Shown here one piece after another: positions 13,245 to 62,322 of a stretch of DNA of 62,323 nt. This DNA comes from an archaeon (GTDB taxonomy: Archaea > Undinarchaeota > CAZHTU01 > JBDRCC01): contig JBDRCC010000017.1 of NCBI GenBank assembly GCA_043822065.1, positions 1 to 62,323 on the forward strand, written 5' to 3'. The position numbers were made by a program, and so were the translations under genes. Numbering within the stretch: the first letter of the stretch is position 1; every line of letters begins with the position of its first letter. The notes below the pieces were generated by a model. That model was not told the DNA's origin. It made no database searches and saw only the letters and a program-made list of their open reading frames with translations.

Positions 13245-16200
13245 ATGGTTTCAGTTCGCAGGATGAGCATGAAGGGCTTCAAGTCCTTCGGCAGAAACAT
13301 TTGCATGGACTTTCCCCCAGGGTTCACCGCCATAGTCGGGCCTAACGGGAGCGGCAAGTCCAACGTAGTAGACGCCCTCTGTTTCGTCCTTGGCAGGATG
13401 AGCGTTAAGAGCCTTCGGGCGGACAGGCTCCACGAGCTTATTTTCAACGGCGGAACGGCAGGCAAGCCCGCCTCAAAAGCCAGCGTTTCAATAACATTCG
13501 ACAACACAGAGGGCGAGCTCCCCTTCCCTGAAAAGGAGGTCGAGGTCGTCAGGGAGATACTCAAGGACGGAAAGTCCGCCTACATAATCAACGGCACAAG
13601 GACGACCAGGACGCAGATAGTCGACGTCCTCTCAAAAATCCGGGTCAATCCGAACGGGCACAACATAATCCTCCAAGGGGACGTGGCCCGGGTAATCGAC
13701 ATGAACGCGGTCGAGCGCAGGGAGATAGTCGACGACGTCTCCGGGATAGGCGAGTACGAGGAGAAGAAGATAAAGGCGCTCAGGGAGCTTGAAAAGGTCC
13801 AGCAGAAGATTTCGGAGGCTGAAGCCGTCCACCGCGAGCGGAAGAAATACCTCACTGCAGTGGAGCGGGAAAAAGATGATGCGGAGCGGTACAAGGCCAC
13901 AACTGCGCGGCTAAAGCACTACCGCGGGGAGATATTCTCAATAAAGATTAAGAAGTCGAACAAGGAGCTCGGGTCCATGGGCGCCGAGTACCTGACGCAC
14001 GTCGAGTCGCAGGAGAAGATTTCCGAAAAGATAAACGCAAGGCAGGAGGAGGTCAATTCCCTCCAGGGCAAGATAAACGAGATTGACGAGTTCCTCTCAC
14101 GCCAGGGCGAGAGCAAGTATGCAAAGGAAATATCTGATGCTAAAGTTTCGATAAGCTCACTCTCTGAAAAGAGGAAGCTATTGGTCGAGTCTGCCGACAG
14201 TGCCGGCAAAGAGGTTAAGTCAATAGAAGACGAAATATCCGCAGTTGCCGAAGCGGAGAAGGAGTCAAAGGTGCTGATTGAAAAGCTCCGCAAGGAGCGG
14301 CTCGGCCTGGAAGGCAAACTGAACGCAAAGCGCTCTGAGCTCGCACAGCTGAGAAAAAAGGCAGGGCTGAAGCCCGGCGAGGACTCGGAAAAAGAAGAGA
14401 TTACTGCCAAGATAACGGAGCACAGGCTTAAGCTTGGCTCGGCGACCGGGAAGCACACCCACCTGAACGAAAACCTCAAGGCGCTGGCTTCTGAGCTGAA
14501 GTCCCTGCTCTCACAAGTTTCATTTCAGCCGCTTGAGGGCGAGACTACCCAACAGCGGGCAGCCAGGGCCGAAGCCGAATATGCGTCCCTTGGGAAAAGC
14601 CTCGTGTCAAAAAAGCGCGAGCTTGACTCGCTCAAGAAGCGGCTTGGGCTTGAGGAGGTTCCCTCTATTGCCGAGGAAGAGGTAAAAAAGCCGGCTGCCG
14701 ACGTCCTTGAGGAAATCAAGGCGGAGGTCGAGCGGCTGGACGCGCTTCTCTCGAAGGGCGCCGGCGAGCTCCAGGACGGCGCAGACATCTCTGCCCTGAA
14801 AAAGAGGGTTAAATCCTTCCTGTCCGACGTTTCGCGTTCAGTTTCGAGCATAAAGTCGAAAGTTGGAATCGTCAGCGATGAGGACAAGAGGCGAAAGGAG
14901 TCGCTTTTGCGGCTCGGTGCCCTCTCAGGGGAGGTTTCCGGGCTCCTGTCGCGCAGCAGCAGCATGGGTATAGACGCACAGGCACTTAAGAAGGCAGCCG
15001 CCATAGAGCCGCAGCTGCAGCAGCTGAAATCAGAGCTCGCGTCCATTGACTCGGAGGCGGCAGGGCACCGGCAGAAAATTTCCGAGCTTGAAGAGGCGAG
15101 GGACGCCATAGAGAAGGCTTCAAAGAGCGGGCTCGAGAAGCTCGAAGCAGCGTCATCTGAAGTTGAGCGGCTTGTCGAAGAAAAGAACGGGCTTGACGTT
15201 GAGCTTTCAGGCCTCATATCGAAATCAGAGGTCCTCTCCGGCGCAAAGCAGAAGGCAGGCAGGTCCCAGATAGAAAAGCTCCAGGCGAGGATTTCAGGCG
15301 CACAGGCAGACATCTCCTCCATAGACTCACAGGTGTCTGCCCTTGGGAAACGGCTGAAGGAGCTCGAAGCGAAAAGCAAGTCGGAAAGCCTGGAAACCAA
15401 GCTCGACGAGAAGAAGTCCCTCCTGTCAAAGATTGATGGCATAAGGCGCGACATCCAGGAGCTCTACCGCAAGACATCTGACGTTGAGCGCCACAAGAAC
15501 GACCTTAACGTCAGAAAGGCGACGGTCCAGACCCGCCTCCAGGATCTGACTGAGGAGTTCAAGAAATATGAAATACACGAAGTCGAGCCAAAGCACACCG
15601 AGCTCGAGCTCGAGCGCCTAATCCAGAAGAACGAGAAGGAGCTTGCCGAAATCGGCTCGGTCAACATGCTTGCCATTGAGGCGTACGAGGAGATAAAGAA
15701 GGACTACGACGAGCTCGTCTCCAAGATGAACAAACTAACTGAGGAAAAGGCGGCAGTCGAGAGCTTCATGCACGAGATTGAGGACAAGAAGCGCGAGGCA
15801 TTCATGGAAACGTTTCTCCAGCTCCTCGACAATTTTGAGACGCTCTATTCAAAACTCGACCCAGGGGGCGAGGCTCACCTTGTGCTTGAAAACCCGGACA
15901 ACCCGTTTGAGGCCGGGATGGACATGCAGGTCCGCCCGCGGGGCAAGGAGATGATAAATGTCAGCCTCCTCTCAGGCGGGGAAAAAACGCTGACTGCGCT
16001 TGCATTCATCTTTGCAATCCAGCAGTTCAGGCCTGCGCCGTTCTACATACTTGACGAAGTCGACGCCGCGCTTGACAAGGTCAACTCGGACATGCTCGGC
16101 AAGATGCTTGCGGAGTCGGCAAAGGGCGGGAATGCGCAGTTCATAGTAATAACGCACAACGACTCCGTCCTTGAAAAGGCCGACCGGCTTTACGGCGTCA

Positions 16201-16250
16201 GCATGACAGACTACGGCTCTCAGATTGTCGGCGTGGAAATGGGCGCTTAA
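13245..16250 (+). CDS. smc: chromosome segregation SMC ATPase (short; no recognisable hinge)
   Basis: GFKSF, Walker A GPNGSGKSN, Q-loop LQG, LSGGEKT signature, LDEVDAALD, ITH; long coiled coils. Confidence 0.93.
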   Translation: MVSVRRMSMKGFKSFGRNICMDFPPGFTAIVGPNGSGKSNVVDALCFVLGRMSVKSLRADRLHELIFNGGTAGKPASKASVSITFDNTEGELPFPEKEVEVVREILKDGKSAYIINGTRTTRTQIVDVLSKIRVNPNGHNIILQGDVARVIDMNAVERREIVDDVSGIGEYEEKKIKALRELEKVQQKISEAEAVHRERKKYLTAVEREKDDAERYKATTARLKHYRGEIFSIKIKKSNKELGSMGAEYLTHVESQEKISEKINARQEEVNSLQGKINEIDEFLSRQGESKYAKEISDAKVSISSLSEKRKLLVESADSAGKEVKSIEDEISAVAEAEKESKVLIEKLRKERLGLEGKLNAKRSELAQLRKKAGLKPGEDSEKEEITAKITEHRLKLGSATGKHTHLNENLKALASELKSLLSQVSFQPLEGETTQQRAARAEAEYASLGKSLVSKKRELDSLKKRLGLEEVPSIAEEEVKKPAADVLEEIKAEVERLDALLSKGAGELQDGADISALKKRVKSFLSDVSRSVSSIKSKVGIVSDEDKRRKESLLRLGALSGEVSGLLSRSSSMGIDAQALKKAAAIEPQLQQLKSELASIDSEAAGHRQKISELEEARDAIEKASKSGLEKLEAASSEVERLVEEKNGLDVELSGLISKSEVLSGAKQKAGRSQIEKLQARISGAQADISSIDSQVSALGKRLKELEAKSKSESLETKLDEKKSLLSKIDGIRRDIQELYRKTSDVERHKNDLNVRKATVQTRLQDLTEEFKKYEIHEVEPKHTELELERLIQKNEKELAEIGSVNMLAIEAYEEIKKDYDELVSKMNKLTEEKAAVESFMHEIEDKKREAFMETFLQLLDNFETLYSKLDPGGEAHLVLENPDNPFEAGMDMQVRPRGKEMINVSLLSGGEKTLTALAFIFAIQQFRPAPFYILDEVDAALDKVNSDMLGKMLAESAKGGNAQFIVITHNDSVLEKADRLYGVSMTDYGSQIVGVEMGA

Positions 16251-18534: not shown

Positions 18535-18662
18535 ACCTATCGTAGCACATATGCCAATAAATAGTTTATCTTCATCCGAAACGTTTGTTTTGCATTATCT
18601 ATGGGTGTGCCGCCAGTTGAGATAGTAATGTTTAAAACCTATACCGACATTGCATATTCAGG

Positions 18663-19006
18663 ATGGATGCAGAGCAGCTATACTCCTGAGGATGAAATCC
18701 GACTCGCTGATTCTTAGGGATACGGACCAGCTAATCCAAGAGTACATGGCGCGGTTTGCCGGCGACATAAGCGAGCTTGAGGAGGTCAACCGCGAGCTTG
18801 CCAACTTCCCGATACTCGAGCCGGTCATACTGCGCGCCCCGCAGAGCAAGGTCACTGTCGACGACCTTCTGGGCGCCCTCAGGAAAGTCCTGAATGAGAA
18901 GGAGCAGAAGGCAGTCCGCAGGCAGGAGATGGAATCCATGCCATTCAGGATAGAGCTTCCGGACTTTGACATAACAGAGGCAATAGCGGACATACTCACG
19001 CGGATA
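18663..19006 (+). pseudogene. scpA: scpA pseudogene: duplicated, internally deleted, frameshifted and 3'-truncated
   Basis: Starts with the same MDAEQLYS as scpA, then stops; lacks 181 bp between two GCTATACTC repeats; 18677-18933 matches 20265-20521 with 1 mismatch. Confidence 0.92.
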
Positions 19007-19131
19007 TTGAGACGGCAGACAGGCTGTACGGAGTAAGCATGACCGACTACGGTTCGCAGCTGGTCGGTGTGGAGATGGGTGGGCAGGCGCCGTCCGCTAA
19101 AGTATTAAAAATAGGTCCACATATCGATTAA
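19007..19131 (+). pseudogene. smc: fragment of a diverged smc 3' end
   Basis: Translates as ETADRLYGVSMTDYGSQLVGVEMG vs EKADRLYGVSMTDYGSQIVGVEMGA at the true smc end (16173-16250); differences mostly synonymous. Confidence 0.88.
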
Positions 19132-19232: not shown

Positions 19233-19904
19233 TTACTTGTAGCTTACCAGCTCCATAACCATCGCTGCTTCACCGCCGTATGAAACCTTTAATGGCAAAG
19301 GCACGTTATCAGCTATCCAGAAGTTTGCGCTTTCTGATTCATACTTCTTTGCGCTGAATGTTCCTGCAGGCACTGTCATAGACTCTTTGCCTATATACCT
19401 AAGTACAGGCGCTTCAGTTGCAGAAGCAGAGTTCGGGCCTTCTGTAGGGCACTGACCTTCTTGCTGGATAGTCTGGCCTGCTACATTCATCACAGTTGAT
19501 ATTTTTAGGCACGCCAATGATTCCTTGTCCAGCCACATCTTTGTTGTTATTACATTACCCTCTACACTCAGGTCAGACTGCTGCAGCCATGCTGCATTTC
19601 CATTAGCTGCATCTGAGCTAATCTTATACTTTATATCCATTACATTTTGCTGCCCGCCTGCATTTGAGATTATTTTGTATTCAAATTCGCTTAGCAGCCC
19701 ATAGTTATAGAGCATGTTCATCGTAAATTTTGAGGATTCCTGCTCTGACTGTGCTGTTGTCGTGTCCTGCGAAGCCAGTGCCTGCTGTTGCTCCTGCTGC
19801 GGAGCCTGGGCCTGCTGCTGTACACAGCCGCTGATAAACAGAATGCCGACCAATAAAATCAGAAATGAAAGATAACTCACCTTTTTTGTATGCATTTTAA
19901 CCAT
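19233..19904 (-). CDS. lipoprotein with Gln-rich linker and beta-rich (DUF3108-like) domain
   Basis: Basic N-terminus, hydrophobic core, ISGC lipobox; ESMTVPAGTF...WIA motif; AT-richer than neighbours. Confidence 0.75.
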   Translation of the reverse strand: MVKMHTKKVSYLSFLILLVGILFISGCVQQQAQAPQQEQQQALASQDTTTAQSEQESSKFTMNMLYNYGLLSEFEYKIISNAGGQQNVMDIKYKISSDAANGNAAWLQQSDLSVEGNVITTKMWLDKESLACLKISTVMNVAGQTIQQEGQCPTEGPNSASATEAPVLRYIGKESMTVPAGTFSAKKYESESANFWIADNVPLPLKVSYGGEAAMVMELVSYK

Positions 19905-20069
19905 ATGCTTTTATTATACCTTCTATAGGTATATAAATGTTTTTGATTTCTACTTCGTTTGAAGTGCGCCAGCCAAATTATTATGATTCGGCGCTCCAGC
20001 TGATAAAAATCAGGCGGGCGGCTGAGCAGTAGCAAGATTTAAAACCTCCAGCGACATTCTTTTTTCAGG

Positions 20070-20798
20070 ATGGATGCAGAGCAGCTATACTCGATGATAG
20101 AGACCAGGGACTCCTGGGAAGTCTTTATCATTGACACTGTCCGCTCGGAGAAGATGAACCCCTGGGACATAGACCTTGTCCGGCTGGCAGAGAAATGCCT
20201 CGAGCGCATACGGGGCATGAAGCAGTTCGACTTCAGGGTCCCTGCGAAGGTGGTTCTTTCTGCCGCTATACTCCTGAGGATGAAATCCGACTCGCTGATT
20301 CTTAGGGATACGGACCAGCTAATCCAAGAGTACATGGCGCGGTTTGCCGGCGACATAAGCGAGCTTGAGGAGGTCAACCGCGAGCTTGCCAATTTCCCGA
20401 TACTCGAGCCGGTCATACTGCGCGCCCCGCAGAGCAAGGTCACTGTCGACGACCTTCTGGGCGCCCTCAGGAAAGTCCTGAATGAGAAGGAGCAGAAGGC
20501 AGTCCGCAGGCAGGAGATGGAGGCATTGCCCTACCATCTGGAGCTTTCGGAGTTCGATATAACCGAGGCAATAGACACGATACTAACCCGCATAAAGATG
20601 GCGCTTCGCGAATCGCCGTTCATTACATTTTTCGGCCTTCTTAAGAAGCGCGACCGGACTGAGATCTCGCAGACCATACTGCCAGTCCTCCACCTCGCAA
20701 ACGAGCGGAAAATCGTCCTCCGGCAGGAGAGGCAGTTCGGCCCGATTGAGATTTATTTCCCCGAGAACGCTCCTACTGAAATCGAAGCAGAGGCATAA
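20070..20798 (+). CDS. scpA: segregation and condensation protein A (kleisin)
   Basis: MNPWDIDLVRL, AAILLRMKS, LPVLHLANERKIVLRQERQFGPI. Confidence 0.93.
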   Translation: MDAEQLYSMIETRDSWEVFIIDTVRSEKMNPWDIDLVRLAEKCLERIRGMKQFDFRVPAKVVLSAAILLRMKSDSLILRDTDQLIQEYMARFAGDISELEEVNRELANFPILEPVILRAPQSKVTVDDLLGALRKVLNEKEQKAVRRQEMEALPYHLELSEFDITEAIDTILTRIKMALRESPFITFFGLLKKRDRTEISQTILPVLHLANERKIVLRQERQFGPIEIYFPENAPTEIEAEA

Positions 20799-60696: not shown

Positions 60697-62322
60697 TTAT
60701 CCTCCCATAAGTCCTACCTTGAGCATTATCAGTATCGCTGCCAGCAAGCCGAGTATTGCAAATGTCTCTGGCATAACTGCGAGTATCAAGCTCTTGCCGA
60801 ATGACTCAGGCCGCCGGGACATGGACATGATTCCTGACGCCGCAACAATTCCCTGCCCGATTGCTGACAGCCCGGCAAAGCCGACAACGAGCCCGGCGCC
60901 GACTGCAGCTATGCCAGCTGACAGCGGAAGCTCGGTTACTGTGCCGCTGAGTATTCCAGTGAAATAAAGCAGCATTATCGCCACCAGGAGGCCGTAGATT
61001 GCCTGGGTCTCGGGAAGAACCGAAAATACCATAGACTTGCCGAAGAGGGACGGATCACTTGAGGTCGCGCCAGCGCCAGCCGCCGTAGCAATTCCTTGGC
61101 CTATGGCTGAGAGGCCAGCAATTCCAACGGCAAGCCCGGCGCCGACTGCGGCGAGCGCGGCTGCGCCAGTTACCTGGTTGAACGTTCCGCCAAGAATTCC
61201 TGTAAAGAAGAGTATAAGTATTGCGACAAGGAGGCCGTATATCGCCTGCGTCTCCGGAAGTACGGAGAATACCATCGACTTGCCGAACATGTTCTGCTTT
61301 TCTGCAGTGGCCGCGGCGCCGGATGCCGCAGCGATTCCCTGCCCCACTGCAGAGGAGCCAGCAAAACCAATTGCCATACCCGCGCCTACTGCGGCAATCC
61401 CTATGACTAGGGGCATGTCTGGAATGAACTTCCCGCCAATCAGGCCTGTGAAGAACATTATCAGTATGGCGATTAGGAGGCCATAGATTGCCTGGGTCTC
61501 GGGGAGGACTGAGAAAATCATGCTCTTGCCGAAGAGGGATGGCTTTTCAGAGGTAACGCCTATGCCAGCTGCTGCGGCAATGCCTTGGCCTATTGCAGAT
61601 ATTCCTGCAAAGCCAACTGCGATTCCAGCGCCTACTGCGGCAAGCCCGGCAGCTGCAGGTATTGCTTTTATTCCGCCGCCAAGTATTCCTGTGAAAAAGA
61701 GTATTAAAATTGCAACCAAAAGCCCGTATATCGCCTGGGTTTCTGGGAGGACTGAGAATACCATCGACTTGCCGAACATCTGCGGCTTATTCGCAGTCGC
61801 GCCCGCGCCCGCCGCCGCCGCGATTCCCTGCCCGATTGCCGACAGCCCTGCAAACCCAATTGCCATGCCCGCGCCTATTGCGGCGATTCCAACAGGTATT
61901 GGCATATCCGGGATATAACTGCTCCCGATTATGCCGGTGAAGAACATTATCAGTATGGCGATTAGGAGGCCATAGATTGCCTGGGTCTCGGGGAGGACTG
62001 AGAAAATCATGCTCTTGCCGAAGAGGGATGGCTTTTCAGAGGTAACTGCTATCCCCGACGACGCAACTATTCCCTGCCCTATTGCGGACAGCCCTGCAAT
62101 CCCAACAGCTATGCCTGCACCAACCGCAGCCAATCCGGCAGCTGTTGGCAGAGCGGAAACGCCGCCGCCGATAATTCCTGTAAAGAAAAGTATCAAGATG
62201 GCGACAAGCAGCCCGTATATGGCTTGAGTCTCTGGCAGTACGGAGAAGACCATTGATTTGCCGAACATATGGGGTTTGTCCGCAGTGGCTGCTGCGCCTG
62301 CTGCCGCCGCAATGCCCTGCCC
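60697..62322 (-). CDS. atpK: A-type ATP synthase subunit K/c with at least 7 fused hairpins (5' end outside the window)
   Basis: Six PETQAIYGLL plus a terminal PETFAILGLL, each preceded by GQG; the frame stays open to the window edge (GQGIAAAAGAAATADKPH). Confidence 0.95.
   Translation of the reverse strand, partial: GQGIAAAAGAAATADKPHMFGKSMVFSVLPETQAIYGLLVAILILFFTGIIGGGVSALPTAAGLAAVGAGIAVGIAGLSAIGQGIVASSGIAVTSEKPSLFGKSMIFSVLPETQAIYGLLIAILIMFFTGIIGSSYIPDMPIPVGIAAIGAGMAIGFAGLSAIGQGIAAAAGAGATANKPQMFGKSMVFSVLPETQAIYGLLVAILILFFTGILGGGIKAIPAAAGLAAVGAGIAVGFAGISAIGQGIAAAAGIGVTSEKPSLFGKSMIFSVLPETQAIYGLLIAILIMFFTGLIGGKFIPDMPLVIGIAAVGAGMAIGFAGSSAVGQGIAAASGAAATAEKQNMFGKSMVFSVLPETQAIYGLLVAILILFFTGILGGTFNQVTGAAALAAVGAGLAVGIAGLSAIGQGIATAAGAGATSSDPSLFGKSMVFSVLPETQAIYGLLVAIMLLYFTGILSGTVTELPLSAGIAAVGAGLVVGFAGLSAIGQGIVAASGIMSMSRRPESFGKSLILAVMPETFAILGLLAAILIMLKVGLMGG
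61448..62046. repeat. perfect 110-bp direct repeat (61448-61557 and 61937-62046), period 489 bp
   Basis: Read directly from the sequence; a 26-bp identity at 61265 and 61754 has the same 489-bp offset. Confidence 0.9.

Follow-up and report, generated by a model that had tools for sequence, protein, structure and literature searches.

Can an SMC protein do without both a hinge and a zinc hook, and if so, what holds the complex that it forms? This question is raised by the smc gene of archaeal contig JBDRCC010000017.1, which was analyzed over its whole length of 62,323 nucleotides (nt) and is referred to below as the window. The product of this gene, P0001, has 1001 amino acids (aa). SMC proteins are taken to dimerize constitutively through the hinge, which is also regarded as a site of DNA binding and possibly as a gate for DNA; present-day models of how DNA is entrapped and loops are extruded presuppose that the ring is closed there. 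A first-pass annotation, made from the letters of the window, had described P0001 as an SMC with complete head motifs, without a hinge or a CxxC motif, with arms folding back through a plain helical apex, and encoded together with intact ScpA and ScpB. The results presented here support this anatomy, and the interpretation built on it in part. Hinge and hook are missing from P0001 by every test available. We lean towards the reading that P0001 is a genuine SMC orthologue, probably functional, in which the hinge has been excised to leave a loop of ~10 residues while the heads, the arms and ScpA/ScpB have been kept.

The family assignment was addressed with domain models. SMC_N covers aa 4-989 of P0001 (Pfam, 6.1e-70), and all six head motifs were located, in line with the complete head reported by the first-pass annotation; they are invariant across alignments with relatives. 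The best NCBIfam models are TIGR02169 (606.8 bits) and TIGR02168 (533.1 bits), and not those of Rad50 or ASRP, so that by profile P0001 is to be classed as a true SMC: the Rad50 models gave 50-88 bits against cutoffs of 700-1087, and the ASRP model (NF045487) gave 127 bits against a cutoff of 300. Both SMC equivalog cutoffs are nevertheless missed (729.4 for TIGR02169 and 567.35 for TIGR02168). Among PDB sequences, phmmer matched P0001 to Pyrococcus Smc heads with E-values of 2.4e-117 to 2.3e-95. When the predicted structure was compared with PDB by Foldseek, the target-normalized TM-scores were 0.80-0.94 with Pyrococcus Smc head structures and 0.90-0.94 with Smc head/ScpA crystal structures; the matches were to SMC heads alone, and nothing specific to the centre was retrieved.

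The profile search proposed by the first-pass annotation found neither SMC_hinge (PF06470, E≤0.01) nor Rad50_zn_hook (PF04423) in the whole of P0001. Both were also absent from the 25 best Pfam families for two central fragments of 350 and 250 aa (E≤10), beyond which 1 and 8 weaker families lay, with E-values above 6.5 and 2.4, respectively. The central 250 aa gave nine matches to PDB sequences, all with E≥0.24 and none of them an SMC hinge. A custom hinge hidden Markov model (HMM), built from 224 hinge segments of relatives and run with --max (all filters off), reached at best E=0.37 on P0001, off-centre at aa 333-354. An hhalign comparison of aa 430-620 with the hinge alignment returned a probability of 0.15%, and when all six frames of the window were scanned for a hinge (1159 pieces), the best E was 3. 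In the TIGR02169 alignment, profile positions 3-498 match aa 5-500 of P0001, the hinge is skipped, and the match resumes in the C-terminal part. P0001 has no CxxC motif; its only cysteines, at aa 20 and 46, are both in the head. BLASTP of the P0001 centre against P0002, the closest hinge-bearing relative, and P0003, a hingeless one, yielded coiled-coil-type matches only (E≥0.006), all of them outside the hinge. The comparison thus revealed no remnant of a hinge, nor did it establish that the apices of P0001 and P0003 are homologous. The ESM Atlas search with whole P0001 retrieved bacterial SMC_N clusters of 736-882 aa, which we treat as leads only.

Length had been part of the original argument. 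P0001 is indeed 168-188 aa shorter than its closest hinge-bearing relatives (1169-1189 aa), a deficit of about one hinge as had been claimed, but length alone is not diagnostic, and the premise that a prokaryotic Smc measures about 1150-1200 aa did not stand, since hinge-bearing DPANN SMCs of 803-834 aa exist.

To see what occupies the place of the hinge, P0001 was modelled with AlphaFold2 on a 77-sequence alignment and the model was read by DSSP and by predicted local distance difference test (pLDDT) values; P0002 (1189 aa) was modelled from the same set as a positive control. The control gave an alpha/beta hinge at aa ~499-663 with a pLDDT of 85-93. The P0001 model has a mean pLDDT of 78.7, with heads above 90, and its aa 169-871 are entirely helical, with no strands in the centre. 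The GAGELQDGAD turn noticed earlier near aa 510 is the apex loop of Table 1, and the predicted arms fold back at it as had been proposed. Helix breaks are arranged in pairs around the turn at aa 506-514 (286-291/710-717, 373-376/626-630, 426-434/572-577 and 467-474/540-545), and the C-terminal arm has further breaks at 560-561, 774-785 and 804-809. The N-terminal arm of P0002 breaks at the same positions (289-292 and 376-379), and its C-terminal arm breaks are offset by 152-160 aa from their P0001 counterparts. Given that the breaks correspond with this offset, P0001 is collinear with a canonical SMC apart from its centre, where a ~10-residue loop stands in for ~155-165 residues. Each modelled arm, at ~315-335 residues, has the canonical length.

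Table 1. Features of the smc-scpAB region, in nucleotide positions of the window; aa numbers refer to P0001 unless another protein is named.
Feature	Position (nt)	Strand	Evidence
smc (P0001)	13245..16250	+	open reading frame of 1001 aa; neither hinge nor zinc hook
N-terminal ATPase head half, aa 1-168	13245..13748	+	motifs; pLDDT >90; PDB matches to Pyrococcus Smc heads
Walker A GPNGSGKS, aa 32-39	13338-13361	+	motif search
R58	13410-13421	+	motif search
Q-loop, Q144	13668-13682	+	motif search
N-terminal arm helix, aa 169-504	13749..14756	+	AlphaFold2, DSSP; collinear with N-terminal arm of P0002
Distal arms and apex, aa 426-577	14520..14975	+	irregular low-confidence helices; no detectable hinge similarity
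Apex loop GAGELQDGAD, aa 505-514	14757..14786	+	non-helical at aa 506-514, pLDDT <50
C-terminal arm helix, aa 515-829	14787..15731	+	AlphaFold2, DSSP
C-terminal head half, aa 830-1001	15732..16247	+	motifs; pLDDT 90-96
Signature motif LSGGEK, aa 909-914	15969-15986	+	motif search
Walker B FYILDE, aa 933-938	16041-16058	+	motif search
D-loop, aa 940-944	16062-16076	+	motif search
H-loop, aa 969-972	16149-16160	+	motif search
Truncated scpA duplicate	18623..19036	+	direct repeats; DNA alignment to scpA 20030-20610; translation P0404
scpA (kleisin), 242 aa	20070..20798	+	PF02616 1.2e-9; NCBIfam ScpA models cover both the N- and C-terminal parts (aa 21-82 and 121-230 of ScpA)
scpB, 161 aa	20798..21283	+	PF04079 5.5e-33; TIGR00281 92 bits, cutoff 89.2

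The outer ends of the arms differ between the two models. The distal ~75 residues of each arm form short helices in P0001 (435-466, 475-505, 515-539, 546-559 and 562-571) and are continuous in P0002, and the P0001 distal arms carry additional Pro and Gly residues. The two helices that flank the turn have a hydrophobicity of 0.29-0.32, against 0.19-0.27 in other arm segments; these differences, like those in charge, are small and not decisive. Such remodelling suggests the main rival reading, that the distal arms and apex (aa ~426-577) are a new stable homodimer module, for instance a four-helix bundle of two hairpins, which closes the top of the ring. That related DPANN SMCs have exchanged the hinge for another dimerizer, a CPxC hook (see below), and that the engineered B. 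subtilis Smc(Zh) chimera, in which the hinge is replaced by the Rad50 zinc hook, is described as functional in the sections of PMC5344682 consulted, would fit with it. However, no domain, motif or structural look-alike for the P0001 centre was found with Pfam, the PDB sequence search or the ESM Atlas (≥0.9); in the hingeless pair P0003 and P0004 the apex (57% conserved) is no better conserved than the distal arms (40-57%); and the hydrophobicity difference is small. We regard a new apical dimer as unlikely.

If the architecture of P0001 is viable, it might be expected elsewhere, and the first-pass annotation had suggested looking for it in relatives. Among the 120 best word-indexed matches three proteins lack the hinge, namely P0001 itself, P0003 (838 aa) and P0004 (851 aa), the latter two being also without ~80 residues per arm. 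In an exhaustive HMMER search over 1.84 billion representatives, from which the best 150 proteins were taken, the custom HMM found the hinge missing in 29, so the case is not unique. Of these, 28 were re-checked with Pfam, and PF06470 was absent at E≤1e-4 in all 28; in P0158 part of the hinge is still recognizable (aa 481-545, E 3.5e-8). The five hingeless relatives scored with NCBIfam gave 537-658 bits with TIGR02169 and 104-139 bits with the ASRP model, and by these scores they are still to be counted as SMCs. One hingeless cluster has 12 members on separate contigs, and another (P0251) includes a fragment labelled Hadarchaeales. Since hingeless forms thus recur in independent assemblies, mis-assembly becomes less likely as their cause.

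Further independent SMC lineages without a hinge, of 726-1012 aa, were observed: P0124/P0184/P0251/P0247, P0224/P0242, and the proteins P0217, P0226, P0162 and P0183. All are without a central CxxC, save P0242, which has CPVC at aa 491; like P0001, P0003 and P0004 also lack this motif.

A tree was built from the heads alone, with 77 of 266 proteins: all 27 hingeless proteins below 1060 aa together with 50 that have a hinge. P0158, P0223, P0237 and P0264, which are long or have a partial hinge, were excluded. The tree requires at least five changes of hinge state, and hinge loss has thus occurred several times independently among related SMCs. P0001 falls in the clade (P0005,(P0001,(P0003,(P0004,P0002)))), in which P0005 is a 961-aa hinge-bearing SMC from locus L001 of an Undinarchaeota metagenome-assembled genome. 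The heads of P0002, P0003 and P0004 are 90-92% identical to one another, and that of P0001 is 71-73% identical to those of P0002-P0005. A single hingeless clade of P0001, P0003 and P0004, a group named after the tree had been seen, was rejected (approximately unbiased test, p-AU 0.005), and a clade of P0003 and P0004 was not rejected (p 0.19). As the trio does not form one clade, the hinge was lost at least twice within this small group, and to different extents.

The nesting of hinge-bearing P0002 among hingeless P0003 and P0004, with heads 90-92% identical, admits another explanation, because homogenization by gene conversion could mimic the pattern. P0001 might then be a specialized paralogue that works beside a canonical hinge-bearing SMC encoded outside the window. 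Against this, P0001 holds the scpAB-linked position that the hinge-bearing SMC has in L001, where the gene order is smc, a metallo-beta-lactamase gene, scpA and scpB; the rejection of the joint clade, bearing in mind how the group was chosen, argues against an old hingeless lineage; and no second SMC_N protein was found among the 55 open reading frames (ORFs) of the window that were scanned. We therefore consider a specialized paralogue quite unlikely. Orthology of P0001 to the canonical SMC is supported by the L001 gene order, by the identity of the window ScpA (60%) and ScpB (62%) to the L001 pair, by a head that is 71-72% identical to those of hinge-bearing P0002 and P0005 and has a branch length near the median, and by an SRP54 relative shared with P0002: the closest relative of the window SRP54 (69% identity) has the same contig descriptors as P0002, from which we infer that the two are on one contig. 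Similarity to the L001 genome, together with DPANN-labelled SRP54 matches of ~50% identity, places the organism as a DPANN archaeon related to Undinarchaeota. Two scans of genome contigs added little. The one based on P0001 produced 255 pattern matches with none confirmed, and a profile scan (5 sequences, 123 columns) gave three loci, of which L001 alone was close; the lineage of the window was not found.

The scpA and scpB genes lie 3.8 kb downstream of smc on the same strand and are intact, in agreement with the earlier description. The interval is less orderly. It holds a truncated duplicate of scpA whose upstream region and start codon are 84% identical to those of scpA; an internal deletion of 181 nt at a 12-nt microhomology follows, and then ~260 nt nearly identical to scpA. 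The ATG frame of the duplicate ends after 8 codons, and a TTG ORF at 18650-19036 covers ScpA aa ~65-175. We read the duplicate as a pseudogene or, alternatively, as a trace of a recent rearrangement or of a faulty assembly in the stretch from smc to scpAB. Between it and scpA, at 19233-19904 on the reverse strand, P0403 (223 aa) is encoded, a protein with a signal peptide whose N-terminus resembles a lipobox (…LISGC) and which matched no Pfam family.

A window that is probably a metagenomic contig, with a near-identical direct repeat of ~260 nt 2.4 kb downstream of smc, makes one consider whether the hinge is missing through an assembly or binning artefact, by in-frame collapse. Against such a collapse, the junction is in frame and exactly between two arm helices, and no repeat of ≥30 nt exists inside smc. 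The centre is unique sequence with native codon composition: the GC content at third codon positions is 0.70 there and 0.69-0.75 across the remaining gene, and the composition by codon position is alike. Moreover, the independent hingeless relatives come from other assemblies and have different junctions. We judge an artefact to be very improbable. A 309-aa ORF runs antisense to the smc centre (14525-15454, reverse strand), and we take it to be a mechanical by-product of a purine-rich coiled-coil coding strand.

Decay is the remaining alternative. DPANN genomes are reduced, and in such a genome smc could be a remnant in which the hinge deletion has crippled function before the ORF was disrupted. 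P0001 is a singleton lineage, its distal arms look degenerate, with their Pro and Gly, and a pseudo-copy of scpA sits at the locus, all of which would fit decay. Yet the 3-kb ORF is intact with every catalytic motif present, scpA and scpB are intact and 60-62% identical to the L001 pair, the arms have kept their length, and by codon position the centre is composed like the remainder of smc. Nor does the head branch show acceleration (length 0.23-0.26, median 0.21), and other hingeless lineages persist across many clusters. We give little credence to a decaying remnant.

In a second group of relatives the hinge has been replaced by something recognizable. The search with P0218 disclosed a large family of SMC-headed proteins of ~950 aa (P0218, P0284-P0402), whose named members are labelled Pacearchaeota, Nanoarchaeota or simply 'archaeon'. 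P0218 scores 544 bits with TIGR02169. According to precomputed domain lists, none of the 119 listed relatives of P0218 has PF06470. In their sequences, 114 of the 119 carry CPxC exactly at the midpoint. Four relatives, picked from the seven whose precomputed lists named PF04423, were tested, and all four passed the gathering score of that model at aa ~458-508. In the head tree the hook motif is present in 14 of the 18 members of the Pacearchaeota/Nanoarchaeota clade. These CPxC proteins are a natural counterpart of the engineered Smc-zinc-hook chimera.

Two further observations concern this family. Four members of ~1480 aa (P0294, P0349, P0368 and P0399) have LAGLIDADG/intein domains (PF14528, PF14890) in the precomputed lists and are probably encoded by intein-containing SMC genes. 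P0306 and P0317 represent two distinct zinc-hook SMC clusters, both of 944 aa, and one genome may encode both as paralogues.

Given a P0001 without hinge or hook, a different mode of dimerization or an open top, as the first-pass annotation had proposed, would follow logically from the modelled anatomy. In the reading that we favour, two P0001 molecules would still form a Smc-ScpAB complex, in which a single ScpA would link the two heads, binding one at its neck and the other at its cap. The complex would be further held by the ScpB dimer, by ATP-driven engagement of the heads and by side-by-side contacts of the arms. The apex would be a simple helical hairpin, with the top of the ring closed weakly or not at all, and it would chiefly be the head/kleisin compartment, not a hinge-sealed ring, that holds the DNA. 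That a hingeless architecture can be viable is indicated by P0003 and P0004, the 29 of 150 relatives, the 12-member cluster and the changes of hinge state in the tree.

Several points weigh against this reading. The best relative of P0001 is 54% identical over the matched stretches and none is close, so that conservation of its own apex cannot be judged. The centre (aa 420-580, ~150 aa) is modelled with low confidence (pLDDT 36-69), and it could conceal a small bundle at the apex or some new interface for dimerization. The truncated scpA duplicate, 1.4 kb upstream of scpA, indicates a rearranged neighbourhood, and the 62 kb of the window are the only visible part of the genome, so that a second, canonical smc may lie elsewhere. 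Finally, a dimerization-defective B. subtilis Smc localizes poorly to parS, according to the part of PMC4785775 consulted, and an open-topped SMC may therefore work poorly. A wider claim is that the SMC hinge is evolutionarily dispensable in DPANN, having been lost at least five times and exchanged for a zinc hook or, in P0001, for nothing recognizable, and that P0001-ScpAB works with its arms unjoined at the top. We offer this claim tentatively and hold it to be doubtful.

Natural SMCs that have heads, full arms and ScpAB and lack an apical dimerizer make it possible to test directly which functions of the hinge are indispensable, and P0001, P0002, P0003/P0004 and the CPxC clade provide the material for a comparison with hinge-bearing or hook-bearing sisters. 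Activity of P0001-ScpAB would mean that the ring need not be closed at the hinge, whereas an inactive P0001-ScpAB would illustrate the decay of SMC in reduced genomes. Should the hinge prove dispensable, these proteins would be natural evidence that a hinge-sealed ring is not required for Smc-ScpAB function. For annotation, hingeless SMCs fall below the SMC equivalog cutoffs.

The other genes of the window are archaeal housekeeping genes, which encode aminoacyl-tRNA synthetases, SRP54, FtsY, ribosomal proteins, TFB and an A-type ATPase. The 55 ORFs scanned included none with an Mre11-type family, and Rfam gave no match on the window. At 60697-62268 on the reverse strand, and perhaps running off the end of the window at 62322, an ORF of at least 523 aa has six ATP-synt_C repeats (2.2e-110). 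It adjoins the genes of A-type ATPase subunits E and C (AC39), and is a multi-hairpin fused c subunit of this enzyme.

Among known systems, P0001 is close to canonical archaeal Smc-ScpAB (Pyrococcus structures 4I99, 5XNS and 5XEI), with which it shares an ABC head with all motifs, arms of ~330 residues and ScpA/ScpB encoded nearby. It differs in lacking the ~165-aa hinge and in scoring below the TIGR02169 equivalog cutoff. The DPANN CPxC SMCs resemble P0001 in having an SMC head and no hinge, but their midpoint is occupied by a zinc hook of the Rad50 type, whereas the arms of P0001 are devoid of cysteine. Rad50/SbcC and ASRP (ClsN/Sph) likewise combine a head of the SMC superfamily with a coiled coil that turns back on itself, no globular hinge being present. 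Rad50/SbcC has a CxxC zinc hook, as ASRP proteins do according to the parts of PMC9389158 consulted, and the models of both score far below those of SMC on P0001. As for MukB/MksB/JetC, the Foldseek comparison of P0001 with MukB and JetC chains gave TM-scores of no more than 0.16-0.24, much lower than with SMC heads, and the partners of these proteins are of the MukEF/JetAB type, whereas the window encodes ScpA and ScpB.

Constructs of B. subtilis Smc in which the Rad50 zinc hook replaces the hinge or the hinge is mutated, as described in the portions consulted of PMC5344682, PMC5526789 and PMC4785775, show that the hinge fold itself is replaceable and that arm-arm contacts aid dimerization without a hinge. 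These are laboratory constructs, and the functional ones kept the zinc hook as a dimerizer, while P0001 has none that can be recognized. A precedent is a 2025 report (PMC12153180, of which extracts were consulted) on an Actinobacteria-like clade, known from ocean metagenomes, whose SMC homologues are 'hinge-less'. Its description, an SMC head and coiled coil with no hinge and no CxxC, is true in every point of P0001, and its authors regard hinge loss as a new kind of biology that leaves dimerization and DNA binding to be explained. Neither ScpA nor kleisin is named anywhere in that paper (0 occurrences). That clade was placed among bacteria, whereas P0001 is archaeal and nests among DPANN SMCs; with the clade compared by description, we infer that the two hinge losses were independent. 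A limited literature search returned no paper on a natural hingeless or hook-bearing archaeal SMC, a result that does not establish absence from print. Hingeless bacterial SMCs are thus already on record, and what is new here is an archaeal, ScpAB-linked SMC with full-length arms and neither hinge nor hook.

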